Assembly (NCBI GenBank): GCA_964596395.1
Contig: CAZQSY010000002.1
Coordinates: forward strand, 34,339 to 98,338
Source: an uncultured Candidatus Saccharibacteria bacterium
GTDB lineage: Bacteria; Patescibacteriota; Minisyncoccia; Phycocordibacterales; UBA9973
DNA length: 64,000 bases
Direction of reading: 5' to 3'
The notes under the pieces are model-generated. The model ran no database searches. It saw only the letters and a list, made by a program, of their open reading frames with translations, and was not told where the DNA came from. Both the position numbers and the translations under genes were made by a program. The stretch's first letter is position 1, and every line of letters starts with the position of its first letter. This document shows, piece after piece, positions 11,324 through 30,511 of this stretch.

Positions 11324-12592
11324 CTATTTCCATCCGAAAGAAAACAGGGTGAAAACACTGACCGCGGCAAGCAGGCAAAATACCAGCCAGCCAAAGATAT
11401 TCGAGGTTTTTTTATTTTTGAAATCTCCCATCGCCTTTTGGCTCGCGCTTATGCGAAGAATCAGCAGAAAAATCACCGGGGCTATTATGCCGTTCAGCGC
11501 CGCTGAGTATATCAGGCCTTTGACCGGGTCGAGCCCGACGAAATTCAGCATTATCCCGAGTGCCAATGCAACCACGATTACGCCGTAAAAAGCCGAGGCC
11601 TGCTTCCACTTTCTGTACAGCCCTTCCTTCCAGTTGAAGGTCTCGGATATAGCGTAGGCGGCCGAGCTAGCCAAGACCGGCATGGCGAGCAAGCCAGTAC
11701 CCAGTATGGCGATCGCGAAAAGAGCGAAAGAAAAATCGCCCGCCACCGGACGAAGCGCCTCGGCGGCATCGGCCACCGTTTCGATTTCGGTGATTCCCGT
11801 CTTGAAAAGAGTAGCCGCGCTTCCGGCGATTATGAAAAACATAACCAAGTTCGAGAAAAACATGCCCGACCACACGTCTATCCGCATTTTTTTTATGTCT
11901 TCTCGGCTGGCGAGCGTCCGCCTCTCTTTTTCTGTCTTCTCCCCTTTCAAAATTTCTTCTTCAACCTCCTGCGCGGTCTGCCAGAAAAAAAGATACGGTG
12001 AAATAGTCGTGCCGACGGCAGCGCAAATGAGAAAGATTTCTTCTTTGGCAAAACGTAATGACGGCAAAACCAGATTCTGTATCACGCTTCCCCAGTCGGT
12101 AATAACGAAAAAGGCCGAAAATATGTAAGCGAAAAGAGCCAGCGCCAGATATTTCAAATATTTTGAATATTCTTTGTATGGAACAAAAATCTGCAGAAGC
12201 ACGGAAAGGCCGGCGAAACCGAAAACCCAGAAAACGAAACCGACTTCCGGAAAAATCAGCTGGGCCGATTTGGCCATCGCCCCCAAATCCGCCCCGATGT
12301 TGAACACATTCGCGAAAAGCAAAAGGAACGCGCAAAAATAAAGAATTTTTCTGCCGAAATGCCTCTTGATGTTAGAAGCCAGACCCGCGCCGGTGGCGAG
12401 CCCGATACGCGCGCACATTTCCTGCACTATACCCATCAGCGGAAAAGTAAAAATTGAAAGCCAGAGCAGGCCGAACCCGCGCGAGGCCCCCATCTCTGAA
12501 TATGTGGCTATGCCCGAAGGGTCGTCATCTGCCGCACCAGTAGTCAGCCCCGGCCCCAAAATTTTCCAGTATTCCCTGACCTTCTTTTCCAT
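11324..12592 (-). CDS. mntH: NRAMP-family divalent metal cation transporter
   Basis: GPGLTTGAADDDPSGIATYS signature; 422 aa polytopic. Confidence 0.9.
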   Translation of the reverse strand: MEKKVREYWKILGPGLTTGAADDDPSGIATYSEMGASRGFGLLWLSIFTFPLMGIVQEMCARIGLATGAGLASNIKRHFGRKILYFCAFLLLFANVFNIGADLGAMAKSAQLIFPEVGFVFWVFGFAGLSVLLQIFVPYKEYSKYLKYLALALFAYIFSAFFVITDWGSVIQNLVLPSLRFAKEEIFLICAAVGTTISPYLFFWQTAQEVEEEILKGEKTEKERRTLASREDIKKMRIDVWSGMFFSNLVMFFIIAGSAATLFKTGITEIETVADAAEALRPVAGDFSFALFAIAILGTGLLAMPVLASSAAYAISETFNWKEGLYRKWKQASAFYGVIVVALALGIMLNFVGLDPVKGLIYSAALNGIIAPVIFLLILRISASQKAMGDFKNKKTSNIFGWLVFCLLAAVSVFTLFSFGWK

Positions 12593-20318: not shown

Positions 20319-21086
20319 CTAACCTTGGGGTTTAAACTCCAACTCTTTAACTGAATCAAATACTATAAAATTATCAGTAAATTTATATTTAATCTCAATA
20401 GACGGTTTATCGGGGCAACAGCGCGCTGTGTCTTTGGAGTATCCAGGTTGTGTCTCTACTATATAGCTTCCAACTAATTTAACACCGTTATACCCCCAAT
20501 CTTGGTATCCGCGTTCAGTAAGAATACTCTGTTTGATGGAAGATGGGTCTAATTTTGAAATTTCACTATTACCGAATGCCTCGCCAAATGCTATAAGGTG
20601 CCAACGTGTTGCCGTGCCCGCTCCGGCTTCCGTGAGAACCACCAAAATCGCTTCCTTGTTGTTTAGACCAGAAACCTTTTCTATATTAAATGCACTTTTC
20701 GCGCCACCACCGTTAGAAACTCTGTCAGTATCTTCAAAAACAACTTTCCAACCATCTGAATCAGAGTATTTTAAAATCATTACTCCTGTGCTGAAATAAT
20801 TATTTTCTTGATTCAACGCAGTAGCATACGCAAAAGCGACTTCATTAATGCCGTCACCTTCAAGATCTAACTTAAGTTCTTTGTTCAAAATTGCCTTCAA
20901 AGGAAGAAAATCTTTTACGTCGGGATAATTTAATTGCAATTTTGGTATAGCTGTATTTTTTGTAGTTTGCTGAGGTGTAGAATCAACCTCAGGCGACTTT
21001 TTAACCAAAGTCACATACCCGAGTACGCCAGCTAAAATTATAACCAAGACAACTAAAACCACGTTTGCAAATCCTTTCTGGTTCAT
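20319..21086 (-). CDS. hypothetical membrane-anchored secreted protein
   Basis: N-terminal TM helix, no other motif. Confidence 0.45.
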   Translation of the reverse strand: MNQKGFANVVLVVLVIILAGVLGYVTLVKKSPEVDSTPQQTTKNTAIPKLQLNYPDVKDFLPLKAILNKELKLDLEGDGINEVAFAYATALNQENNYFSTGVMILKYSDSDGWKVVFEDTDRVSNGGGAKSAFNIEKVSGLNNKEAILVVLTEAGAGTATRWHLIAFGEAFGNSEISKLDPSSIKQSILTERGYQDWGYNGVKLVGSYIVETQPGYSKDTARCCPDKPSIEIKYKFTDNFIVFDSVKELEFKPQG

Positions 21087-21135: not shown

Positions 21136-21223
21136 TGGTGCCCAGGAGAGGACTTGAACCTCCACAGCCTTACGGCCATATCCACCTCAAGGATACGTGT
21201 ATACCAAATTTCACCACCTGGGC
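21136..21223 (-). tRNA. tRNA-Leu (GAG), long variable arm
   Basis: 88-nt cloverleaf, anticodon loop TTGAGGT, encoded CCA. Confidence 0.8.
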
Positions 21224-21254
21224 ATTGCGCCCATACTAACACATTTTTAAAATT

Positions 21255-21285
21255 TAAAAACCCCGTTTGATCCGGGGTTTTTAAT
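21255..21285. terminator. bidirectional intrinsic terminator
   Basis: AAAAACCCCGtttgatCCGGGGTTTTT. Confidence 0.6.
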
Positions 21286-21289
21286 CTTC

Positions 21290-21685
21290 TTATTCCACTT
21301 TCTCGGCCACTTCTTCTTTTCCCTCTTCCACAATCGCCGAACGAAGCTTGCGGCGTACATCCTTCAGAGCTTTCTTACGTACGTAGTAGAGTTTTGCCTT
21401 GCGCGCGCGGGATTTCTTGGTTATTTCAATTTTTTCTATGGATGGCGAATACAATGGGAAAATTCTTTCTACCCCAACACCCGAAGCTATTCGGCGTACT
21501 GTGAAAGTCGCGCCGATTTCAGCGCCGTGTTTTCTAGCCAACACCAAACCTTCAAACGCCTGCAGACGTATTTTACCTTTTTCGTCCGGAACTTTTGACC
21601 AAACTTTTACGGTATCGCCCGAATTAAAATTAAGTTTCTGGCGCTCCTCCACATTTACCGATGTCAGTTTTGATTTATCTACCAT
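21290..21685 (-). CDS. rplS: 50S ribosomal protein L19
   Basis: 131 aa, GDTVKV...[16 protein letters not shown]19 motifs. Confidence 0.95.
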
Positions 21686-21731: not shown

Positions 21732-23435
21732 TTACAAAAACTCCCCTTGATAACATTTTTCGCAGTAAACAATCTCCGGTCTGTCGGGTGAAAAAGCGGT
21801 ATTTATTTCCGCCTGGCACTTGGCGCATCTTCTCCTCCACAATTTTGGCGGATTCAAGCGGGCAAACCGGGCGTTCTCCCGGCATTTCGGACATTCGCGA
21901 GGCGCGGGAAGCCCTAGTTTCCGCAATAGGTCAAGCTCGCCTTTGGTAACCTTGTACCCCCTCTTGCAGTTGGCGCACTCTATAACCTCGTTCAAAATAC
22001 CATCCTTCGTTTGTTCAATCGTGTTAGGCAACGAACCGGCCCCCATTGTTGTCTTGTAAACCGGCTCTGGCCGGTCATCCCAAGCGTACCCTCCGGCAAG
22101 CGCTTCTTCTTTAGTTTTTGGTAAAAAACGCATGGCGTTTGATTTGTTGTAGGCGAACCTGGAAAATTCCAGCGGGAAAAATTCTCCGTAATAAAATTCC
22201 CGGCCAAGCTTATCTGTATACGGATTTTTCTTCATATCTTCAATAATTTGCGCTTTCAATTTTTCATATTCTTCTTTCGAATATTGCTTGTTTAAAATGC
22301 AGTATGATTTTCTCTTTAAATTCACACAGCCGAAATTATTTTTCCCGGCGATGTTCCAAATGCAATACTGCAAATTTAAGCAGTCCGGAAAACAATAAGA
22401 GGAAAACATGACATTATTAACATTTTCCCCAACATGCACGCTCTCGTAAACTAGCGTCGCATTATTGCCCCAAACAGAATAATCAAAACAATCTTTCGCT
22501 GGCGGCACAGTCACAAATTGCGTCCATTTGCAATTTTCTACACTGTCGCATAAATAAACATTTTTTGAATTCTTAGAGGTAAACACGTATTCGCCGGTAA
22601 CATCCAGGTTAAGGGTATGCCCTGTATATACCCGGTACGGCTTGGTAAGCCATAAATCAAAGGCCTGTTTTTTAAATTTCTCAAGTCCTGCAAAAGATTT
22701 TAAATTCAATTCCTCCAACTTTTGGAAATACTCTTCTTTGGTGTATTTGATATTAAAAATACAGTAGGATTCTCCGCGAAGATTCACACAACCGACACAG
22801 TTTCTACAATTGAAACAACTTCTTGAAAACCAAACATCCACGCATGATTCGCATCTCTCCGAAAAAAACGTGCGATAACACTTATACAAACCGAATGACC
22901 CGTAACATAGTTCCGAATCCCGTACACTTAAACAATCCATACTGTACTTAACTCCATTCAACATGGAAGAGTAAAAAACGTTTTCGCAAAAATCTGCCCC
23001 AATAACCATATAACAATCTTTGCACCATGCAACGCCGCTTGTGTAAGTTGAATTTTTGAGGCTTGTGTACAAACTTTCCACCCCGACGTATGGAGTTTTT
23101 AAAGAAAGCTCCTTTACCTGATCAAAAAAAGGCCTCGAAGGGTCGTACTCGGTAGCATACTCGGTGCCATCCCACGAATCACCCCACCAACATTTCGGAC
23201 AGTAAACCGCTACTTTATCTTCGGGGGAATACATGGATAAAGTTTTTTCTCCGCACAAGTTACATGTACGCCAAAAGAGATAATACATATTCGCGAAAGA
23301 AAATCGTCGATACATCCGGCACTCTGGGCACCACGTCGGCGGCGGGACATTCATTTTTTGGTAGAAAGAAAAATCCTCAGATTCAATTACGAATTCTTTT
23401 TTACAGTTCTGGCAAATCTTAGTTTCGTTTTCCAT
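21732..23435 (-). CDS. cysteine-rich protein, paralog A (567 aa) with N- and C-terminal CxxC...CPxCR zinc-ribbon domains and a Cys-ladder core
   Basis: about 50 Cys; N-terminus KICQNCKK..FYQKMNVPPPTWCPECR..RTCNLCG..YCPKCWW; C-terminus CANCKR..PAPRECPKCR..RRCAKCQ..YCEKCY; internal CxxCxxCxxCVNL...YCI.N..Y.KEEY repeats. Confidence 0.8.
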   Translation of the reverse strand: MENETKICQNCKKEFVIESEDFSFYQKMNVPPPTWCPECRMYRRFSFANMYYLFWRTCNLCGEKTLSMYSPEDKVAVYCPKCWWGDSWDGTEYATEYDPSRPFFDQVKELSLKTPYVGVESLYTSLKNSTYTSGVAWCKDCYMVIGADFCENVFYSSMLNGVKYSMDCLSVRDSELCYGSFGLYKCYRTFFSERCESCVDVWFSRSCFNCRNCVGCVNLRGESYCIFNIKYTKEEYFQKLEELNLKSFAGLEKFKKQAFDLWLTKPYRVYTGHTLNLDVTGEYVFTSKNSKNVYLCDSVENCKWTQFVTVPPAKDCFDYSVWGNNATLVYESVHVGENVNNVMFSSYCFPDCLNLQYCIWNIAGKNNFGCVNLKRKSYCILNKQYSKEEYEKLKAQIIEDMKKNPYTDKLGREFYYGEFFPLEFSRFAYNKSNAMRFLPKTKEEALAGGYAWDDRPEPVYKTTMGAGSLPNTIEQTKDGILNEVIECANCKRGYKVTKGELDLLRKLGLPAPRECPKCRENARFARLNPPKLWRRRCAKCQAEINTAFSPDRPEIVYCEKCYQGEFL

Positions 23436-23436
23436 T

Positions 23437-25107
23437 TTAATAAATTTCCTGCTGGTAGCACCTCTCGCAATAGATTATATCAGGCAAATCTGGAGAATAC
23501 GCCGTTTCAAATTCATTCTGACACCCCTCTTTCATGCATTTTCGATGCCAAAGTTTGTTTGGCCCGCGATTTTTCATTCTTCTTTCATTTCTGCAATCAG
23601 GGCACAGCCTGGGCAACGGAATGCTTAATTTTTTATAAAAAAGAAACTCATTCTGAATGATGCGGTAATTTTTTGAACAGGCGATACAAACAAAAACTTC
23701 CTTAGACGCGTCAAAACCAATATCTTCAATTCTCTCTGGGATTTCCTCCCACTTTTTTATTTCCTTGCCATAAGTGCCGCGGGCGGTGTCTTCCCATTTA
23801 AAACCTTGTGACAAAGCTTCCTCTTTCGTAAGCGGGAATTCCTCCATCGCGGTAGTTTCGTTGTAGCCGAAAAGCATCGCCTCTTTCGGGAAAAATTCGC
23901 CGTATATTCCTTCATTTTTTAGGCCGGTAATAATTTCCTCCCTAATTTTTTCATATTCATCTTTGCTATATTGCTTGTTCAAAATACAATAATTCCCCTT
24001 CTTCAGAGCCATACAGCCGAAAAGATTTTGTCCATTCGGGCAGTTAAAGGAATATTCCGCAAAATTTGAACCCCAGCAATTGTGGCAGCAAATGCAATTA
24101 GACGCCTGAATGCCGGTATTGGTTGAATTGTAAATTCTCTCGGCGGTGCGCCCGGCCGTGTGGCAATCCACGCAGTCCCGCGCTTCGCGCCATACATGAG
24201 ACGAGTAAGCGCAATCCTCGGCATCGTAGGAATGGAAGCAGGAGCGATTATTTTTTACATTCACTTCATAATTACCCGTCGAGTTCGTAGACATGTAAAT
24301 CTCGGCATATTTTCTGGGAAATTTTTGAGCGAACTTTTTAAATTCTTTTCTGAAATTTTCCACTCCTTCGTAAGTATCCAGCTTGTAGTTTTTCAGCTTT
24401 TCTGCGTATTCTTCTTTATTGTATTCAACATTCCAAATGCAGTTGGATTTATTGCGCAAATTGACGCAACCCAGACAATTCACACACCCGCGGCAATTTA
24501 AAAGAAAGGAACTGTCGGTACAGCTATAACAGCTTTTGCAATATTTTAGACCGTAGGAATCATGGCAATCATCCGCCTCGTAAGAAAGCTCTACCTGGTG
24601 GGTGTAAGAGACGTCCACACAATCCTTGGTCTTCTGAATCCAATAACAGTGAACGCAATTCTCGTTGTTGGAAGACTCCACTATCATGTAGCAATTCCGG
24701 CAGTCGGCCACGTAATTCACGTACTGGCAGTCAACATTCCGCATGCCGACCAGCGCCGGCTTTGGAACTTTTTTGTAAAGTTCTCCAACTTGTTCAAAGA
24801 AGGGCTTGCTTTTGTCGTAAGAAAATCCGAATGACATCGGGTCCCACTGGTCGCTCCACCAGCACGGCACGCAATACACTGGCGTTTCTTTATTCGGCGA
24901 CCATATGGTAATCATGCTCTCTCCGCACAGGTCGCAATTCCGCTTGTAAAAATTCCTCTCGTTGCGGAAGATATGCCTTAACTGCGCCCGGCAATCCGGG
25001 CACAAGCGGGGTGCCTGCACGCCCATTTTTTCGTAATACTTAAAATCCTCCAAACCAATCGAAAAATCATTCTGGCAATTTTTACATTTTCTCGTTTCGT
25101 ATGTCAT
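23437..25107 (-). CDS. cysteine-rich protein, paralog B (556 aa)
   Basis: same architecture as paralog A; 1-bp gap from A. Confidence 0.8.
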   Translation of the reverse strand: MTYETRKCKNCQNDFSIGLEDFKYYEKMGVQAPRLCPDCRAQLRHIFRNERNFYKRNCDLCGESMITIWSPNKETPVYCVPCWWSDQWDPMSFGFSYDKSKPFFEQVGELYKKVPKPALVGMRNVDCQYVNYVADCRNCYMIVESSNNENCVHCYWIQKTKDCVDVSYTHQVELSYEADDCHDSYGLKYCKSCYSCTDSSFLLNCRGCVNCLGCVNLRNKSNCIWNVEYNKEEYAEKLKNYKLDTYEGVENFRKEFKKFAQKFPRKYAEIYMSTNSTGNYEVNVKNNRSCFHSYDAEDCAYSSHVWREARDCVDCHTAGRTAERIYNSTNTGIQASNCICCHNCWGSNFAEYSFNCPNGQNLFGCMALKKGNYCILNKQYSKDEYEKIREEIITGLKNEGIYGEFFPKEAMLFGYNETTAMEEFPLTKEEALSQGFKWEDTARGTYGKEIKKWEEIPERIEDIGFDASKEVFVCIACSKNYRIIQNEFLFYKKLSIPLPRLCPDCRNERRMKNRGPNKLWHRKCMKEGCQNEFETAYSPDLPDIIYCERCYQQEIY

Positions 25108-25160
25108 TTTTCATTTGTCAATAAACCTTGCGATAGCAGAAAATATTGACATTTGTATCT

Positions 25161-26906
25161 TTAATAAACTTCTTTCTGATAACATTCCTTACAGAAAATT
25201 TTCTCTGGTCTCTCGGGAGCATACATCGTTTCAAATTTATTTTGACACTTGTCTGCGTGGCCGTGATTTTTTAAATCGCACATGCATTCTCTTTGGTAAA
25301 AAGAAAACGGATTGGTCCATCTCAGCCTGTCGTAGTATCGGCAATTCGGGCATTTTCTCGGGAGAGGCAGGTTCATTTGCCGATAAAAAGAGAGCTCATC
25401 GGGCAGAATCCTAAAGGCGGAAACGCACAACGTTTTCGTATTCCCGTCGCCTGGACATTTTATGGTCTCTTCACAAATGTTATCCGATATATCTTCTATA
25501 CTATCAGGGATTTCTTCCGCACTTAATGTCGGCTCGTAATACTTCCTGTCTATATCTTTCCATTTGCTTCCAAAGGCCTTAATTTCTTCTTCAGAGATTC
25601 GCAATTCTTCATACGCTAAAGATTCATTGTACGCAAATGGAGAAAAAGCAGGTGGAAAATATTCTCCAAATCCGTATTTTTTCCCAGTAACATCAATATA
25701 AGGCGTCTCTTCCATGTGTCTTTTTATCTTCGCTACCAGCGCTTCATAATCCTCTTTCGTGTACTGCTTGTTCAAAACACAATATTGCTTTTTATCCAAG
25801 CCGACGCAGCCAAAACAATCCGCGCACCCTTTGCAATTGTCGCAATAAAACAAGTTCCGGCTTCCCCGGCCGCAGCTAAAACAAAAAATAACCCTGTTTC
25901 CTCCCCGACCGCTAATGACAGTTTCGTAGCATTCCTCAAGTTTACCCGGGAAAACAAGGTCTCGCGAATCTTTCACTACGTTTCCGCCGAGAAATATATC
26001 TTGGACGTTCTCCGAGTTAACCACAAAGTAGCACCGGCGCGCGGATTTGGAATTCTCTACAAAATCGCCGGAGGAATCTATGGAATTTTTTATGTTTGCA
26101 CAGCGGTGAACGGCCGACTTGTATACTTCAGCAAAAATTTCTTTGGCTTCGGTTTGTCCTGAAAAAATATTCAGCCTGAGCGCGGCCAGAGCATCCTTAT
26201 ACCCTTCTCGCGTAAGCTGTCTATTTTTAAAGACATAGCTTTTATTGCGAAGATTTGACGAGAGACAGCAATTTACGCAATTTGAACAATCAAACAAAAA
26301 ATGTGATTCAACGCATTGGTCAGAAGCAATCAAGAAAGAAGAATTATAGTTCTGGCTTGCCTTTACTAACTCGTATCCCCGATCATTATTTCTAAGTATT
26401 AAAGAATCAAGGCAGTTCTTGCTGTCAAAAACGAAACGCGAATATTTAACATTCTCAGACCGAAGAACACTGAAAGACAAGTAAACCTCTTTGCTGGTAT
26501 AACAATAATTTGCATATTCGCAACCGGCGCCGTTCCTTTCGTTCTGGTCCATGGCTCGATGCGGAACTTTTTCCTTAAGTTCGCGGAATTGCAAGAAAAA
26601 ATTTTTTGAGAAATCGTATTCTCTGCCGTAATCTCTGCCGTCCCAATCGTCGCCGAGGTGGCATTTCACGCACCATATGGCAAACGGGGATTCTGGCGCG
26701 TACATTGAAACTACGGGTTTGCCGCACTTTCCGCAGTTTCTCTTGTAAAGCGAACGCTCATTTACAAAACACATCTTGCGCAAGAATCGGCAGCGCGGGC
26801 ACCAGGTCGGCGGTGGGACGCCCATTTTTTGGTAAAAAGAAAAATCTTCCGGCTCAATCGTGAAGTCTTTTTTACAGTTTACGCAGATTTTTGTTTCGGC
26901 CTGCAC
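25161..26906 (-). CDS. cysteine-rich protein, paralog C (581 aa)
   Basis: same architecture; first CxxC of the C-terminal ribbon is degenerate. Confidence 0.8.
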   Translation of the reverse strand: MQAETKICVNCKKDFTIEPEDFSFYQKMGVPPPTWCPRCRFLRKMCFVNERSLYKRNCGKCGKPVVSMYAPESPFAIWCVKCHLGDDWDGRDYGREYDFSKNFFLQFRELKEKVPHRAMDQNERNGAGCEYANYCYTSKEVYLSFSVLRSENVKYSRFVFDSKNCLDSLILRNNDRGYELVKASQNYNSSFLIASDQCVESHFLFDCSNCVNCCLSSNLRNKSYVFKNRQLTREGYKDALAALRLNIFSGQTEAKEIFAEVYKSAVHRCANIKNSIDSSGDFVENSKSARRCYFVVNSENVQDIFLGGNVVKDSRDLVFPGKLEECYETVISGRGGNRVIFCFSCGRGSRNLFYCDNCKGCADCFGCVGLDKKQYCVLNKQYTKEDYEALVAKIKRHMEETPYIDVTGKKYGFGEYFPPAFSPFAYNESLAYEELRISEEEIKAFGSKWKDIDRKYYEPTLSAEEIPDSIEDISDNICEETIKCPGDGNTKTLCVSAFRILPDELSFYRQMNLPLPRKCPNCRYYDRLRWTNPFSFYQRECMCDLKNHGHADKCQNKFETMYAPERPEKIFCKECYQKEVY

Positions 26907-26910
26907 CTAT

Positions 26911-27744
26911 TTATTTTAACACCCTTTCGAATTCTTCCGGCAACGGCGATTTAACTTTTACCGTTTCGCCTTTTAAGTTTTTAAATTCAATGGAAAGCGC
27001 GTGGAGCATCATGCGGCCCTCTTCCCCGCGGGGATTATACAATTTATCCCCGACAATCGGATGATTGATGAATTTCATGTGCGCGCGAATCTGGTGCGTC
27101 CGGCCGGTCTTAGGGGAAATTTCTAGATAAGTAAAAACGCCCTCACCCCCTTTACTCCCCCCTCTCCAAAAAATTTTTTTGGAGAGGGGGCTAGGAGGTG
27201 AGGATTCCCCCGCCCTAACAAGGGAGGGGGTAAGGGGGAGGGTTACTCTTTTCAAGACCTTGTACTCGGTAACTGCCTCGCGCATTTCCCCGCGCGCGCC
27301 GCGCCCCGCCAGGCGCCGGCGGAAATCCCGCGGGCTCCGGCCGATCGGTTTATCTATTATGTCGTGGTCTTTCTTTATCAAGCCTTCAACTATTGCTACA
27401 TAAATCTTTTTTACCCTGTTTTGCTTGTCCGCCAACCCGCGCTTAGCAATTTCGAGCGCGGAGGCGGAAAACTGACTCTTCAAAAACTCGTGTGCCTTTT
27501 TATTTTTCGCCAAAAGTAAGACGCCCGAGGTTTCTCTATCTAACCGGTGCACCACCCCCGGTCTTTTTATTTCTTTCCCTTCCACAAAAATCGGCTCGCC
27601 GACATCTTTCGCTTCCGGATATTTTTTCAAAAACCAGTCGGAAATTGTCTCTTCCCCGCTTTTCCCATCAGGATGAACAGCCACACCCGAGGGTTTATCA
27701 ATCGCTAGAATATCCGAGTCTTCATAGAGGATTTTTATCTTCAT
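26911..27744 (-). CDS. rluD: RluA-family 23S rRNA pseudouridine synthase (RluD-like) carrying an in-frame insertion
   Basis: AIDKPSGVAVHP, HRLDRETSGVLLLAK, TGRTHQIRAH motifs; a Pro/Gly/Ser-rich loop of about 35 aa is encoded by a palindromic GC-rich segment. Confidence 0.9.
   Translation of the reverse strand: MKIKILYEDSDILAIDKPSGVAVHPDGKSGEETISDWFLKKYPEAKDVGEPIFVEGKEIKRPGVVHRLDRETSGVLLLAKNKKAHEFLKSQFSASALEIAKRGLADKQNRVKKIYVAIVEGLIKKDHDIIDKPIGRSPRDFRRRLAGRGARGEMREAVTEYKVLKRVTLPLTPSLVRAGESSPPSPLSKKIFWRGGSKGGEGVFTYLEISPKTGRTHQIRAHMKFINHPIVGDKLYNPRGEEGRMMLHALSIEFKNLKGETVKVKSPLPEEFERVLK
27136..27245. repeat. GC-rich palindromic (hairpin-forming) element inserted in-frame in rluD
   Basis: CCTCACCCCCTTTACTCCCCCCTCTCCAAAAAATTTTTTGGAGAGGGGGCTAGGAGGTGAGG is an imperfect palindrome, followed by CCCCCGCCCTAACAAGGGAGGGGGTAAGGGGGAGGG. 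Confidence 0.7.
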
Positions 27745-27745
27745 G

Positions 27746-27817
27746 TGCTCCCGGAGGGAATCGAACCCCCATCAAGGCCTTAGAAGAGCCCTGTTCTATC
27801 CATTGAACTACGGGAGC
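27746..27817 (-). tRNA. tRNA-Arg (TCT)
   Basis: cloverleaf by eye; anticodon loop CTTCTAA. Confidence 0.75.
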
Positions 27818-27828
27818 AAAAAGAGCTT

Positions 27829-27903
27829 GGTGCGCGGTGAGGGACTTGAACCCCCGACCTTCTCAGTGTAAATGAGTTGCTCTACCAACTGAGCTAACCG
27901 CGC
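27829..27903 (-). tRNA. tRNA-Val (TAC)
   Basis: GCGCGGTTAGCTCAGTTGGTAGAGC..., anticodon loop TTTACAC, encoded CCA. Confidence 0.8.
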
Positions 27904-27979: not shown

Positions 27980-28345
27980 CTACAACGACGGGTCAATTAC
28001 GGGCGAGGGGGAATTTAAAATCTCCTTTGACTTTTCTTTGCGTGCTTCGAAATAATCAAGAACTCCGCGTATCTTTTTCTCGTCCAGGTTTTCCGGGAAA
28101 GAAACATTTTCAACCGAGGCGCTCTGTTCCATACTCGTTTCCCTGAAAAAATACCACCCGAATGCCATAAACACGGCGACTAAAAATAGGACAACCAAGA
28201 CAACCAACCGAAAATAGAGGTCGGGCTTTATCCAGGAATCCCCCTTCCTGAATTTTTTCTCTCTTTTTAAAAATTTAATCTTTGGAATTTCCATTTTTAT
28301 TCGTTGATAAAACTCAGAAGCTTGACCTCTAGCGTCGCCGACCAT
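27980..28345 (-). CDS. hypothetical membrane protein (last gene of the pilMNO-like cluster)
   Basis: single TM, overlaps the upstream gene; position suggests a pilus assembly component. Confidence 0.35.
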   Translation of the reverse strand: MVGDARGQASEFYQRIKMEIPKIKFLKREKKFRKGDSWIKPDLYFRLVVLVVLFLVAVFMAFGWYFFRETSMEQSASVENVSFPENLDEKKIRGVLDYFEARKEKSKEILNSPSPVIDPSL

Positions 28346-28842
28346 TCCGGGTCTTTCTTGTCTTTGCTTGAGACACTTTCGCCGACGGTGTCTTTACTCA
28401 AGTTTATCGAATTAAACGACAATATATAGGGAGAATTTTCCAGCAGGTTTATAAATTTGTAAATGGCGCTAAAGGTGCCTGATGTTTTCAGCGCGACGGT
28501 CATGTAAGCGCCGCTTTTTTCCGTGTTTACCGAAGCGATTTCCAGCGAGACATCCGACTTTCGGGCAAGATTTTCTATCCCGTCCAGAAAAGCCGACGCC
28601 TCCGAACTTCGCACAAAATGACTCTCTATCTCGGCTCTTTCGATTTCGGTATCTTTCATCAGACGAGCCAAAATTTTCAGGTTGTTTTTCTTTACCTCTT
28701 CGGCCTGCCAGTTCGCTTCTTTTTCTAGAGAAGATTCATTCCTAAATTCGACCACGCGGTAAATAAAAAGGAAAGCGAGACAGGAGAAAAGAAAGAAGAC
28801 GGCCGAGACAATGAGCGCTTTTTTTTGAAAAATTGAATTCAT
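28297..28842 (-). CDS. PilO-like pilus assembly protein (putative)
   Basis: N-terminal TM plus coiled coil, gene order after the PilM/PilN-like genes. Confidence 0.45.
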   Translation of the reverse strand: MNSIFQKKALIVSAVFFLFSCLAFLFIYRVVEFRNESSLEKEANWQAEEVKKNNLKILARLMKDTEIERAEIESHFVRSSEASAFLDGIENLARKSDVSLEIASVNTEKSGAYMTVALKTSGTFSAIYKFINLLENSPYILSFNSINLSKDTVGESVSSKDKKDPEWSATLEVKLLSFINE

Positions 28843-28848
28843 TTAAAT

Positions 28849-29478
28849 TTAAATCGGCGGAAGCTGTGACCGGCGCGGGGTCAAAGTCAGGGTAAAAGTT
28901 ATATTTGACGCCCGAACCAGATTGGATATCGGAAGTTCGACCTTGCTAAAAGCCGCGCCGGCCTCCAGCGACTCGCGAAAACGAATCAGCGCTTCGCGGT
29001 CCGCGGCCGTTCCGGCTACGTTTACGATCTCGCCCCTACCGTCCTTTCCCGCGGGCGTGCTTGCCTCGTTTTTATAATATACTCCGATAATTTTTATCCC
29101 GCCCGTTCTTCTTGAAAGAATTTCGTCGAGAACCGTCCGAGAAAAAATATTTTTATTTTTCTCCGCTTCCTCAACCACGGCGATTTTTTTTCTCAAGGTT
29201 TCTACCGTCTGCAGTGTATTCATGTCCGACTCCGAAAAAGCATTCTCTGCCTCCTGTAATTTTATCTTATCTGCCACAGAGCTTGCCTGTATCGAAGAAA
29301 GAACGTAAGACGGAAGCAAGAGGAACAAGCCGACTAGGACCGAAGAGCCGAGCATGAGCAGAGAAAAAGCGGCCAGCCGGCAGAGAAAATCTTTCTCCAT
29401 TTTTTTCTTCTCTTCGTTTGGAATAAGGTTAATCATGTTCAAAATCCCCGAGGGCAAGCCCCAGCGCCGCGGCGGCAC
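28849..29478 (-). CDS. PilN-like pilus assembly protein (putative)
   Basis: N-terminal TM, follows pilM with overlap. Confidence 0.45.
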   Translation of the reverse strand: MPPRRWGLPSGILNMINLIPNEEKKKMEKDFLCRLAAFSLLMLGSSVLVGLFLLLPSYVLSSIQASSVADKIKLQEAENAFSESDMNTLQTVETLRKKIAVVEEAEKNKNIFSRTVLDEILSRRTGGIKIIGVYYKNEASTPAGKDGRGEIVNVAGTAADREALIRFRESLEAGAAFSKVELPISNLVRASNITFTLTLTPRRSQLPPI

Positions 29479-30511
29479 CGAGCGATTCCCTCAAGGTAAT
29501 TTCCGGCACATTTTCCTCCACGCCTCCGATGTTCACCCACACATTGGCCAGTTCCACCGGTGTTTTCAAACTCACCGAAAGATATTCAGTAAGACCGATA
29601 AGATTCGAGTCCCCTCCGCACAAAAGAACTTTTTTAATCGGAGGCCTGTCTTTTCCTTCTTCATCTTTATGCGTGTGCCAATATAAAAAATGCTTGACCA
29701 CTTCATCCCGCAAAACAGACACAGCGTTCAAGAGAACCGAAAAGGTCTCGGTATTTTCCGAGCCACGCCGAAGGCCGAATTCTTTTTTCTTTTTTTCCGC
29801 CTCTTCAAAACTTACTTTAAAGTTCTTTTCAATCATCTCTGAGAGCATCGCTCCCCCCAAATCCAAAGTCGAAGTAAACACAGCCGCTCCGCCGGAAATG
29901 ACAAAAATTCCGGTGCGCTTCTTGCCAAAATCGACAATCATGTACGTGCCCGGGTCGCCTTTTTTCACGACGCATCGGGCAATCGCCTGCGCTTCAAGCT
30001 CGAAAGAATTGGCCGACATCTTTGAGCTTCTAAAAACAGACAGGTATTCTTCGATTACATTTTTGGATATGGCGGCCACCTGTAATTTCAGATCCTTTTC
30101 GTCTTCACCTAATTTTTCGTAGTCGAAAATGGCTTCCTCGGGAGGAATGGGTATGTATTCTTCGAGCGAAAGTTCGATTCCCTCGCGCAAGTTCTCCAAA
30201 CCGTCTTTGCCAAGTTTTAAATTAAAAAGATAAACCTGTTCCTCGGGCAAGGAAACACGCACCGATTTTATTCCCTCTTCTTGCCGCAAAGAGTCCAAGA
30301 TTCTCCCCATTTTATCTATATCCCTTATCTTCCCGCTCTCAATAATCCCGGAGGGAATTTTCCTCTCTCCGTACCGGCGCACCCGGATACCGTCTTTTTC
30401 TTTTGCCAGTTCTGCAAATTTTATTGATTCGTCCGAAATATCTAATCCGAAAGACGGCGTGGCCAGGAAACTAGGTGTCGGAAAAAACCTGCTGAAAGTT
30501 TCGGCTAACAT
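29429..30511 (-). CDS. pilM: type IV pilus assembly ATPase-fold protein PilM
   Basis: actin-like fold protein; FGLDISDESIKFAEL N-terminus typical of PilM. Confidence 0.8.
   Translation of the reverse strand: MLAETFSRFFPTPSFLATPSFGLDISDESIKFAELAKEKDGIRVRRYGERKIPSGIIESGKIRDIDKMGRILDSLRQEEGIKSVRVSLPEEQVYLFNLKLGKDGLENLREGIELSLEEYIPIPPEEAIFDYEKLGEDEKDLKLQVAAISKNVIEEYLSVFRSSKMSANSFELEAQAIARCVVKKGDPGTYMIVDFGKKRTGIFVISGGAAVFTSTLDLGGAMLSEMIEKNFKVSFEEAEKKKKEFGLRRGSENTETFSVLLNAVSVLRDEVVKHFLYWHTHKDEEGKDRPPIKKVLLCGGDSNLIGLTEYLSVSLKTPVELANVWVNIGGVEENVPEITLRESLGAAAALGLALGDFEHD

Follow-up and report, generated by a model that had tools for sequence, protein, structure and literature searches.

The 64-kb window (the whole stretch of DNA that was analysed) encodes three cysteine-rich proteins back to back between two housekeeping genes, and the question that this locus raises is what these proteins are, whether they arose by a recent local triplication, and what they might do in the cell. 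The genes, here called C, B and A in their order of reading, lie in the following setting:

26911–27744, minus strand: RluD-type pseudouridine synthase gene (PseudoU_synth_2, 94 bits), ending 4 bp before the start of C
25161–26906, minus strand: paralogue C, 581 aa, GTG start, 38 Cys
23437–25107, minus strand: paralogue B, 556 aa, 42 Cys
21732–23435, minus strand: paralogue A, 567 aa, 37 Cys
21290–21685, minus strand: rplS, encoding ribosomal protein L19 (Ribosomal_L19, 111 bits), 46 bp downstream of A
21254–21284, no strand assigned: candidate terminator hairpin, a GC-rich palindrome of 12 pairs directly after rplS

The ORF listing of the window bears out a sequence-only reading that had placed three adjacent ORFs between rluD and rplS: all are intact, full length and co-oriented on the minus strand, with intergenic gaps of 53 bp (C–B) and 1 bp (B–A). 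Because they are intact and tightly packed, C, B and A are probably co-transcribed, and rluD probably opens the transcript as its first protein-coding gene. Co-transcription is argued from gene spacing, since a promoter and terminator scan of the region yielded no more sites than expected from shuffled sequence. The hairpin at 21254–21284, picked up by a consensus scan and bordered on both strands by runs of A and T, is the likely end of a rluD-C-B-A-rplS transcript, and tRNA genes lie on both sides of this region. A tblastn search of the window returned the three genes themselves only, so it holds no further copies or fragments. Frameshifted fragments or pseudogenes were considered and rejected, as the ORFs are full length, every module is present and the orthologues are equally long. 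The exact sequence of B was already present in a public collection.

Aligned over their full length, the three proteins show 35–38% pairwise identity and, as had been proposed, have one architecture in common: a pair of Cys4 treble-clef fingers, a duplicated core rich in Cys, Asn and aromatic residues, an aromatic linker, and a second finger pair. The modules are laid out as follows:

26622–26906, minus strand: C, N-terminal finger pair
26124–26621, minus strand: C, core half 1, with a degenerate Cys block
25701–26123, minus strand: C, core half 2, with the full C-x2-C x5 block
25470–25700, minus strand: C, aromatic linker
25164–25469, minus strand: C, C-terminal finger pair, with an insertion in the last finger
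24823–25107, minus strand: B, N-terminal fingers
24331–24822, minus strand: B, core half 1
23914–24330, minus strand: B, core half 2
23701–23913, minus strand: B, linker
23440–23700, minus strand: B, C-terminal fingers
23151–23435, minus strand: A, N-terminal finger pair (residues 1–95), zf_Tbcl-like and then zf_Tbcl_2-like
22650–23150, minus strand: A, residues 96–262, a conserved helix (FFxQxxEL) and then core half 1
22221–22649, minus strand: A, core half 2 (residues 263–405), homologous to half 1
21990–22220, minus strand: A, aromatic linker (residues 406–482; YGEFFPxExSxFxYNxSxA...G..W), highly conserved, pLDDT 86–96
21735–21989, minus strand: A, second finger pair (residues 483–567), C487, C490, C515, C518 and C537, C540, C558, C561

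Both internal homologies that had been read from the letters are strongly supported by hhalign, which relates the C-terminal finger module to the N-terminal one (99.8%, E 1.9e-27) and core residues 120–262 to residues 263–405 (99.8%, E 7.8e-28). Both core halves are closed by a C-x2-C-x2-C-x2-C...NLR..SYCI.N..Y.KEEY block followed by a helix. In A, half 1 ends in C195-x2-C198-x8-C207-x2-C210-x2-C213-x2-C216-VNLRxxSYC225-IFN-xxYxKEEY and two helices, and half 2 has a degenerate Cys block (C348, C352, C358, C370, C379) and ends in FGCVNLxxKSYCILNKQYSKEEY and one helix. Linker residues G417, Y429, N430 and W452 are at least 95% conserved among 661 sequences. The lack of a transmembrane segment was confirmed (maximum 19-residue hydropathy ≤1.0), as was that of a signal peptide, since the first finger begins at residue 8. 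By these sequence properties, the family members are soluble, cytoplasmic proteins of about 560 aa.

The fingers are the only part of the proteins that matches described families. They share with zf_Tbcl (PF13451) and zf_Tbcl_2 (PF23477/TIGR04272) the same Cys spacing (CxxC-x24-CxxC followed by CxxC-x17-CxxC) and the motif F.I...D..FY.K...P..CP.CR, with weak HMM matches at both termini. In the N-terminal module of A, which is acidic (pI 5.1) and predicted by AlphaFold2 (AF2) at pLDDT 86–94, these are C8, C11, C36, C39 and C58, C61, C79, C82; its C-terminal module is basic (pI 9.15, net +7). The C58-C61-x17-C79-C82 finger is present in all three proteins; the last finger is C537-C540-x17-C558-C561 in A, and its first knuckle has C-x4-C in B and an insertion in C. 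All matches fall below the curated cut-offs: PF23477 (27 bits) scores 26.4 bits for A (E 5.6e-6) and 17.2 for B, TIGR04272 (36 bits) 21 and 15.7, and PF13451 (24 bits) 17.4 and 19.8 (E 7.5e-4 for B), with no match of C to any of the three. The PF13451 match spans residues 5–44 against profile positions 4–44 of 48, and some orthologues have a precomputed PF23477 match. Methanosarcina proteins with CxxC-x17-CxxC bind Zn experimentally, as determined by ICP-MS (PMC12704099). Whereas known members of these zinc-finger families are mostly small stand-alone proteins, here a fixed two-finger module occurs twice and caps a 560-aa protein whose remaining 400 residues between the modules match nothing.

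No named family had been recognised from the letters, and our searches agree: scanned against Pfam, NCBIfam, PADLOC and PHROGs, the three proteins showed nothing beyond sub-threshold finger matches and noise. PHROGs contributed weak matches to phrog_15341, of unknown function (E 3.7e-4 and 1.2e-3), PADLOC anti-phage systems a single 12.6-bit chance match, and tblastn against 50,697 phage records a finger-sized match only. Scanning 30 diverse isolated cores against Pfam gave no match, nor did a profile search of the PDB; phmmer of A against the PDB returned only LIM-domain noise, and Foldseek gave nothing with E <8 against the PDB and only zinc-ribbon-sized matches against BFVD. AF2 models suggest, with moderate confidence, that the core is an irregular beta-solenoid-like coil, with pLDDT of 61–80 (64–80 in half 1 of A) and almost no regular DSSP structure. 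It was compared with the beta-solenoids of curli CsgA (8c50), ryegrass ice-binding protein (3ult), spruce budworm antifreeze protein (1m8n) and left-handed beta-helix (hexapeptide) proteins; the family-specific repeats of hexapeptide (PF00132), pentapeptide and bactofilin (PF04519; DUF583) solenoids were not detected by HMM. In principle the paralogues could form end-to-end stacks, or each subunit could join its acidic N-terminal module to the basic C-terminal module of its neighbour, giving a bactofilin- or curli-like hetero-filament or lattice. We consider a cytoskeletal or polymer role of this kind quite unlikely, as the monomer pTM of 0.85–0.88 suggests a closed, capped unit and no bactofilin or curlin Pfam family was matched.

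The cysteines themselves present a less regular picture than first described. The proteins had been credited with roughly 50 Cys each and a strict 9-residue Cys ladder; the actual counts for A, B and C are 37, 42 and 38 (6.5–7.6%), and a spacing of 9 residues, though common in A, is less frequent in B and rare in C. Family-wide, Cys autocorrelation peaks at lags of 3, 12, 15, 9 and 18, all multiples of 3, so a strict 9-residue ladder does not exist. The 16 terminal Cys are invariant among 126 aligned A-, B- and C-type sequences, and those of the second N-terminal finger are absent in about half of the wider family. We infer four structural Zn(Cys)4 sites for the terminal Cys and, for most Cys of the core, a packing role inside the coil; C210/C213/C216, together with the C or H at 225, may provide one further metal site.

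A doubtful but possible alternative is that an Fe-S cluster, additional Zn or some other metal is bound by the C-x2-C-x2-C-x2-C(-x8-C/H) blocks ending each core half, in which case the proteins would serve in redox chemistry, store or buffer metal, or act as a scaffold for clusters. As in a ferredoxin-type [4Fe-4S] motif, Cys run at 3-residue spacing (C207-x2-C210-x2-C213-x2-C216), with a further Cys/His 9 residues on, but the spacing of the fourth Cys differs from the CxxCxxCxxxCP signature and the Pro is missing. No Fer4 or other cluster-binding Pfam family was matched, and Fer4 families gave nothing at E up to 1 for the three proteins and 30 diverse cores. Furthermore, core Cys are mostly variable, being swapped for S, L, V or A between paralogues in a pattern typical of buried packing, block 2 is down to two conserved Cys in most members, and one paralogue is Cys-poor, with 24 Cys. 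When the presence of Cys was compared between core columns, the covariation largely reflected subfamily membership and carried no signal on contacts or shared metal sites.

To what extent is this a local phenomenon? Searches with A, B and C returned more than 7,871, 6,057 and 4,140 matches, respectively; the family comprises 5,751 clusters at 50% identity (2,233 with E ≤1e-30), and the best 150 matches are mostly 545–600 aa long. A scan of GTDB yielded at least 586 loci, and those that were fetched are almost all labelled Patescibacteria or unclassified, and in our searches the family was seen only in Paceibacteria/Parcubacteria-type Patescibacteria. Tandem arrays of 2–6 co-oriented copies occur in 47 of 85 loci from related genomes, with a median gap of 15.5 bp among 54 adjacent family pairs, 17 of which overlap. 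Genomes carry 2–7 paralogues, and one 840-kb contig has seven copies in two loci only. A GNAT fusion (P0483) is a single case and carries no weight here.

The tandem arrangement of three similar genes had been taken as a sign of a recent, rapidly evolving expansion, and this is contradicted by the family-wide comparison. The copies are only 35–38% identical, and A, B and C each have a separate orthologue group at 55–70% identity; average-linkage clustering of 164 members gave no clean groups apart from A. B and C orthologues occupy different loci in other genomes, and A stands alone in the rluD-rplS slot of the closest relatives. Since synonymous sites are saturated at 35–38% protein identity, conservation relative to L19 and RluD was used as the measure in place of dN/dS. 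A is 58–69% identical to its orthologues, as compared with 61–73% for L19 and 50–62% for RluD of the same loci; on this measure it is under strong purifying selection and about as conserved as L19. From these comparisons, A, B and C are ancient, slowly evolving paralogues, and a recent triplication is practically untenable.

The neighbourhoods of the family point in two directions. The position of A beside rplS is conserved in relatives, and the order rluD-A-rplS recurs in seven loci (L001, L005, L006, L007, L009, L010 and L082). Other copies adjoin genes for a SpoU methylase, S20, ArgRS/IleRS, tRNA_bind and RuvX. Together with the flanking tRNA genes, the basic C-terminal module and its conserved CPxCRxxxR helix, this is what would be expected of a translation- or RNA-associated factor that takes part in the maturation of ribosomes or RNA, its finger pairs binding rRNA or tRNA, a role that would account for the ribosomal-protein-like conservation of A. 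However, among 33 A-type copies L19 follows only 8 and RluD directly precedes only 5, and in these small genomes, where a large part of the genes serves translation, chance alone would be expected to yield neighbours of this kind. Having 2–7 paralogues per genome is also unusual for a ribosome factor, and we regard this explanation as unlikely.

The second direction is towards ATPases. Across the 85 loci, whose counts are not independent events because the genomes are related, 45 TrwB_AAD_bind/DUF87/TraG-D_C ATPase genes occur in 30 loci; at the CPR background rate about 1–2 would be expected among 734 neighbouring ORFs. CPR genomes have about 2 VirD4-like genes each, almost all away from virB4 (bioRxiv 10.1101/2025.01.22.634366). 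The neighbouring ATPases have an intact Walker A motif and mostly no transmembrane segment. The long forms match TrwB_AAD_bind, DUF87, T4SS-DNA_transf and TraG-D_C above Pfam cut-offs, as VirD4/TraD/TrwB coupling proteins do, and in NCBIfam and PADLOC the ATPases weakly match TraD, CD1115, HerA and CedD, the archaeal DNA-import ATPase. Unlike VirD4/TraD/TrwB and HerA/FtsK proteins, they mostly have no N-terminal membrane anchor and are not beside virB4 or a relaxase, and the long class differs from known systems in its C-terminal CxxC-x17-CxxC finger, present in 16 of 19 and above curated cut-offs (PF23477, 41.8 against 27; TIGR04272, 54.4 against 36). To our knowledge, known coupling-protein or HerA systems have no partners resembling this Cys-rich family. 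In locus L085, for example, the order is Nramp (minus strand), ATPase491, a family member, a nucleotidyltransferase, three family members and, further on, a B orthologue, ATPase766 with the finger and an LTD-PKD surface protein; locus L011 has an A orthologue within a similar cluster. Clusters often end in an LTD/PKD surface protein, and pilus genes are near. No VirD4/TraD/HerA-like ATPase was found in the 64-kb window, and apart from the ATPases the genes around the family are ordinary housekeeping ones (rluD, rplS, uvrC, SpoU, aaRS, DnaJ, MreB).

We tentatively favour, at a probability of roughly 35%, that the family is a zinc-stabilised, non-enzymatic scaffold or adaptor that works with these orphan ATPases, the ATPase link being one of gene neighbourhood only. 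Tandem genes would supply the scaffold or adaptor subunits in fixed ratios, paralogous subunits would assemble as hetero-oligomers, and the finger pairs, acidic at the N-terminus and basic at the C-terminus, would hold a nucleic acid or protein partner. The subunits would cooperate with the two soluble VirD4/TraD/HerA-like P-loop ATPases that flank arrays in related genomes. It should be noted that the conserved polar residues found again in each core half (K139/N140, E151 and D167 in half 1; K288/N289, E300 and D315/D318 in half 2; Y178 and Y357 at matching repeat positions) could equally mark an active site. A more ambitious proposal, which we rate as unlikely, is that the family and the two ATPases form an unrecognised Paceibacteria-specific cytoplasmic machine, in which finger-capped solenoid hetero-oligomers load or guide nucleic acid, which could be DNA from the environment or a host, into or out of hexameric translocases. 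Arrays of paralogues are typical of effector repertoires, and those of this family lie beside VirD4/TraD-like ATPases; the proteins might be secreted effectors that these type IV coupling-protein-like ATPases recognise for delivery into host cells. Secretion of this kind is very improbable: the proteins have no signal sequence and evolve as slowly as L19, their four or more predicted Zn sites would hinder unfolding for export, the ATPases mostly have no membrane anchor, and the t4cp genes of CPR bacteria seldom lie close to virB4.

In groundwater and sediments, Paceibacteria rank among the most abundant uncultured bacteria, and a large part of their tiny proteome lacks an assignment. With thousands of sequence clusters, the family is one of the larger unassigned blocks of that proteome, and for its core of about 300 residues there is neither a Pfam model nor a solved or recognisable structure. 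Public records already contain its sequences as 'hypothetical protein'; the novelty here lies in the description, the architecture and the link to ATPases. The family also gives the 'orphan' coupling-protein-like ATPases of CPR bacteria, of which there are about 5,700 (bioRxiv 10.1101/2025.01.22.634366), their first partner at the genomic level. Defining the family would help to annotate thousands of genomes better and direct attention to a CPR-specific process that can be tested and, if the scaffold subunits and the ATPases do form a single machine, these bacteria would spend more than 1% of a genome of about 1 Mb on an apparatus without counterpart in studied bacteria.

Three co-oriented ORFs (A, B and C) lie back to back on the minus strand between rluD and rplS, at exactly the positions given by the sequence-only reading. 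They and their surroundings are arranged as follows.

27980-30511, minus: type IV pilus assembly genes (pilM, a pilN-sized ORF, pilO and a 121-aa ORF), immediately upstream
27745-27903, minus: tRNA-Val(tac) and tRNA-Arg(tct), directly upstream of rluD
25161-26906, minus: C, ORF of 581 aa with a GTG start
23437-25107, minus: B, ORF of 556 aa
21732-23435, minus: A, ORF of 567 aa
21254-21284: GC-rich palindromic hairpin with T-runs, after rplS
21136-21223, minus: tRNA-Leu(gag), directly downstream of rplS
20319-21086, minus: ORF of 255 aa just downstream of tRNA-Leu, with a hydrophobic segment at the N-terminus and without a Pfam match
11336-12586, minus: homologue of Nramp-type divalent metal transporters, about 9 kb from the triplet

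The gene upstream of C encodes a PseudoU_synth_2 (RluD-type) protein and ends 4 bp before the C start; C and B are 53 bp apart, B and A 1 bp, and ribosomal protein L19 is encoded downstream of A. Same-strand tRNA genes on either side thus bracket five protein genes (rluD, C, B, A and rplS). It is their spacing that suggests co-transcription, since the sites found in a promoter and terminator scan of the region were overall not above shuffled expectation. Among the pilus genes, pilM matches PilM_2 at 126 bits and pilO has a weak PilO match. No further copy or fragment of the family was found in the 64-kb window.

The proteins contain 37 (A), 42 (B) and 38 (C) cysteines (6.5-7.6% of residues), fewer than the roughly 50 first estimated, and have a pI of 6.4-8.0. 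In an alignment of A, B and C with about 40 orthologues of each (alignment A1, 126 sequences), 16 cysteines are invariant. Eight fall within residues 8-82 (numbering of A), as CxxC-x24-CxxC followed by CxxC-x17-CxxC, and the other eight within residues 487-561 in an identical arrangement. The two finger modules, the N-terminal acidic and the C-terminal basic, are homologous, as had been proposed (hhalign 99.8%, E 1.9e-27). [quoted passage not shown] Among 164 members from loci L001-L084 of related genomes, the cysteines of the second N-terminal finger (C58, 61, 79, 82) are present in only 55-72%, with about half of the members lacking them, while those of the C-terminal pair are kept in 90-99%, so that the two protein ends are not equivalent.

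Between the fingers lies a core that is an internal duplication (residues 120-262 versus 263-405; hhalign 99.8%, E 7.8e-28). Each half closes with the block C-x2-C-x2-C-x2-C-x-NLRxxSYCIxNxxYxKEEY and a helix, which bears out the earlier claim that this block is duplicated within each protein. The linker that follows (YGEFFPxExSxFxYNES...G..W) is among the best-conserved parts, with G417, Y429, N430 and W452 conserved in at least 95% of 661 sequences. Core cysteines differ from the terminal ones in that most are kept only inside a single paralogue group, with S, L, V, A, G or N at the equivalent positions of the other groups; across 164 members from species-representative genomes, the only well-conserved ones are C210 (91%), C213 (97%), C216 (87%), C370 (95%) and C379 (89%), and at position 225 the residue is C, H or Y. 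The proposed ladder of cysteines every nine residues is real in that this spacing is common in A, where it accounts for 8 of the 36 intervals between successive cysteines, less frequent in B and rare in C. It is no strict repeat: the family-wide cysteine autocorrelation peaks at every multiple of three (lags 3, 12, 15, 9 and 18), and hydrophobic residues are most strongly periodic at 12-13. At least one full block of 7-8 cysteines is retained in each window paralogue (half 1 in A and B, half 2 in C), and each intact block may hold one extra metal site. An Fe-S or metal-handling protein is an alternative to consider, but with most core cysteines confined to single paralogue groups we regard it as unlikely. 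A fourth, divergent paralogue of 579 aa (locus L004, 6227-7966), which shares about 31% identity with A, B and C, contains just 24 cysteines, indicating that a cysteine-heavy core is not obligatory for the fold. In a single case from the representative library (P0483, 731 aa), an N-terminal GNAT domain (Acetyltransf_1, 34 bits) is joined to a family member, which could be a gene-calling artefact.

AlphaFold2 models of A with alignment A1 (pLDDT 82.4, pTM 0.85) and, independently, of C (pLDDT 84.3, pTM 0.88) present a matching picture. In A, fingers, helices and linker are mostly above 90 pLDDT (block means 86-96), and both core halves reach 61-80 with only scattered beta-bridges (63-76 in the core of C). 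With moderate confidence, the core is predicted to be an irregular solenoid-like coil, in which most cysteines would be packing residues. A solenoid that forms polymers is a further, quite improbable reading of such a core. Foldseek gave no match against the PDB and only finger-sized matches against viral models. None of A, B and C contains a hydrophobic segment (maximum 19-residue hydropathy at most 1.0), confirming the absence of TM segments, and that they are secreted effectors seems very improbable.

The family is indeed not a named one. Pfam and NCBIfam yielded only sub-threshold matches at the termini (zf_Tbcl, zf_Tbcl_2, TIGR04272), thirty diverse isolated cores had no consistent Pfam match, and a core profile found nothing among PDB sequences. 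PADLOC and PHROGs scans of A, B and C returned noise or a weak match to a phrog of unknown function. Homologues are called 'hypothetical protein' and occasionally 'zinc-ribbon' or 'CxxC-x17-CxxC domain-containing protein', and a literature search found no description. These sequences are already public but undescribed, and the core is without a family model, a solved relative or any identifiable fold more specific than the general solenoid class.

The family is very large. More than 7,871 (A), 6,057 (B) and 4,140 (C) homologues were retrieved, searching 1.84 billion representatives with a profile gave 5,751 clusters at 50% identity (2,233 with E ≤1e-30; the best 150 matches mostly 545-600 aa long), and a scan of GTDB species genomes confirmed at least 586 loci. 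Among the matches listed, its occurrence is restricted to genomes of Paceibacteria type (Nomura-, Staskawicz-, Jorgensen-, Giovannoni-, Niyogi-, Sungii- and Liptonbacteria, Paceibacterota, Minisyncoccia). Many automated assemblies with family loci are labelled 'uncultured Candidatus Saccharibacteria', which we suspect to be a generic CPR label; one assembly labelled Gammaproteobacteria and one Burkholderiales protein match are probably mis-binned.

The paralogues are also ancient and strongly constrained. The best 120 matches per query are full-length and 55-82% identical to their own query (the last C matches down to 48%) versus 35-41% across paralogues in alignment A1, showing that A, B and C each belong to an old orthologue group of their own; within the window, full-length identities are 38.5% (A/B), 38.1% (A/C) and 35.3% (B/C). 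Identities to eight other genomes are 58-69% for A, 61-73% for L19 and 50-62% for RluD, which places A under as much constraint as a ribosomal protein. The suggestion of a recently expanded or rapidly evolving system is thereby refuted, and we give it practically no weight.

ORFs called in 85 loci of related genomes and searched with an HMM of alignment A1 contained 164 full-length members. Tight tandem arrays of two to six co-oriented copies occur in 47 loci (six in L076, five each in L018 and L024); the 54 adjacent pairs have a median gap of 15.5 bp, with 47 of them at most 60 bp apart and 17 overlapping. One 840-kb contig (GCA_965656375.1) has a cluster of five copies and two further ones elsewhere, and another genome has seven copies over three loci. 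Three loci (L005, L006 and L010) share the order PilO, small ORF, RluD, A, L19, and two others (L001 and L007) have RluD, A, L19. In these five loci A occupies the slot alone; in L009 and L082 it is filled by paralogues other than B and C. In other genomes, C orthologues either follow RuvX or are flanked by uvrC and a SpoU methylase; B orthologues are part of an ATPase cluster or follow another paralogue, with ArgRS and IleRS on either side. The window triplet thus represents three old paralogues brought together in a lineage-specific manner. The recurring place between RluD and L19 genes might suggest an RNA- or ribosome-associated factor, which we consider improbable.

By far the commonest neighbour is a P-loop ATPase (45 genes in 30 of the 85 loci), matching TrwB_AAD_bind, DUF87, T4SS-DNA_transf and TraG-D_C and, weakly, TraD, CD1115, CedD and HerA. 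Two classes occur, short (about 490-520 aa) and long (about 560-800 aa); in nearly all, Walker A is intact and a TM segment is absent. A C-terminal CxxC-x17-CxxC finger is present in 16 of 19 long ATPases, scoring above curated cut-offs (PF23477, 41.8 versus 27; TIGR04272, 54.4 versus 36), and the motif PF.P...RP.YC..C within it is similar to the final finger of the family proteins. Two gene orders recur, and the cluster at L085 is given in full (FAM, family member).

Recurrent order 1: Nramp (minus), short ATPase, CutA1, cytidylyltransferase-like, FAM x n, ..., long ATPase, LTD-PKD surface protein
Recurrent order 2: MreB, long ATPase, FAM, FAM, short ATPase, DnaJ, membrane protein, agmatinase
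L085 (GCA_965656375.1, 319-15482), first part: Nramp (minus), short ATPase, FAM, cytidylyltransferase-like, three FAM
L085, rest: two small membrane proteins (minus), FAM (B orthologue), long ATPase with CxxC-x17-CxxC finger, LTD/PKD surface protein

The L085 cluster may be a conserved 'super-operon'. Such clusters include orthologues of B (L085) and A (L011), and the window Nramp is 56% identical to those sitting divergently beside them, although the 64-kb window itself has no VirD4/HerA-like ATPase. In 2,918 CPR genomes, 5,713 VirD4-like genes have been counted, only 148 of them near virB4, and exaptation for another function was suggested (bioRxiv 10.1101/2025.01.22.634366). At about two such genes per genome, 1-2 would be expected among the 734 neighbouring ORFs versus the 45 observed, bearing in mind that the genomes are related and the events not independent.

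The link between the family and these orphan ATPases is unreported in the literature searched. As the most likely mechanism, to which we assign a probability of about 0.35 (a figure that also covers the descriptive part), the family proteins would be non-enzymatic subunits building hetero-oligomeric scaffolds or adaptors, whose acidic N-terminal and basic C-terminal finger pairs would hold nucleic acid or protein partners, and which would act together with the orphan VirD4/HerA-like ATPases. On this computational evidence, we rate the family as lying outside the known kinds of system.
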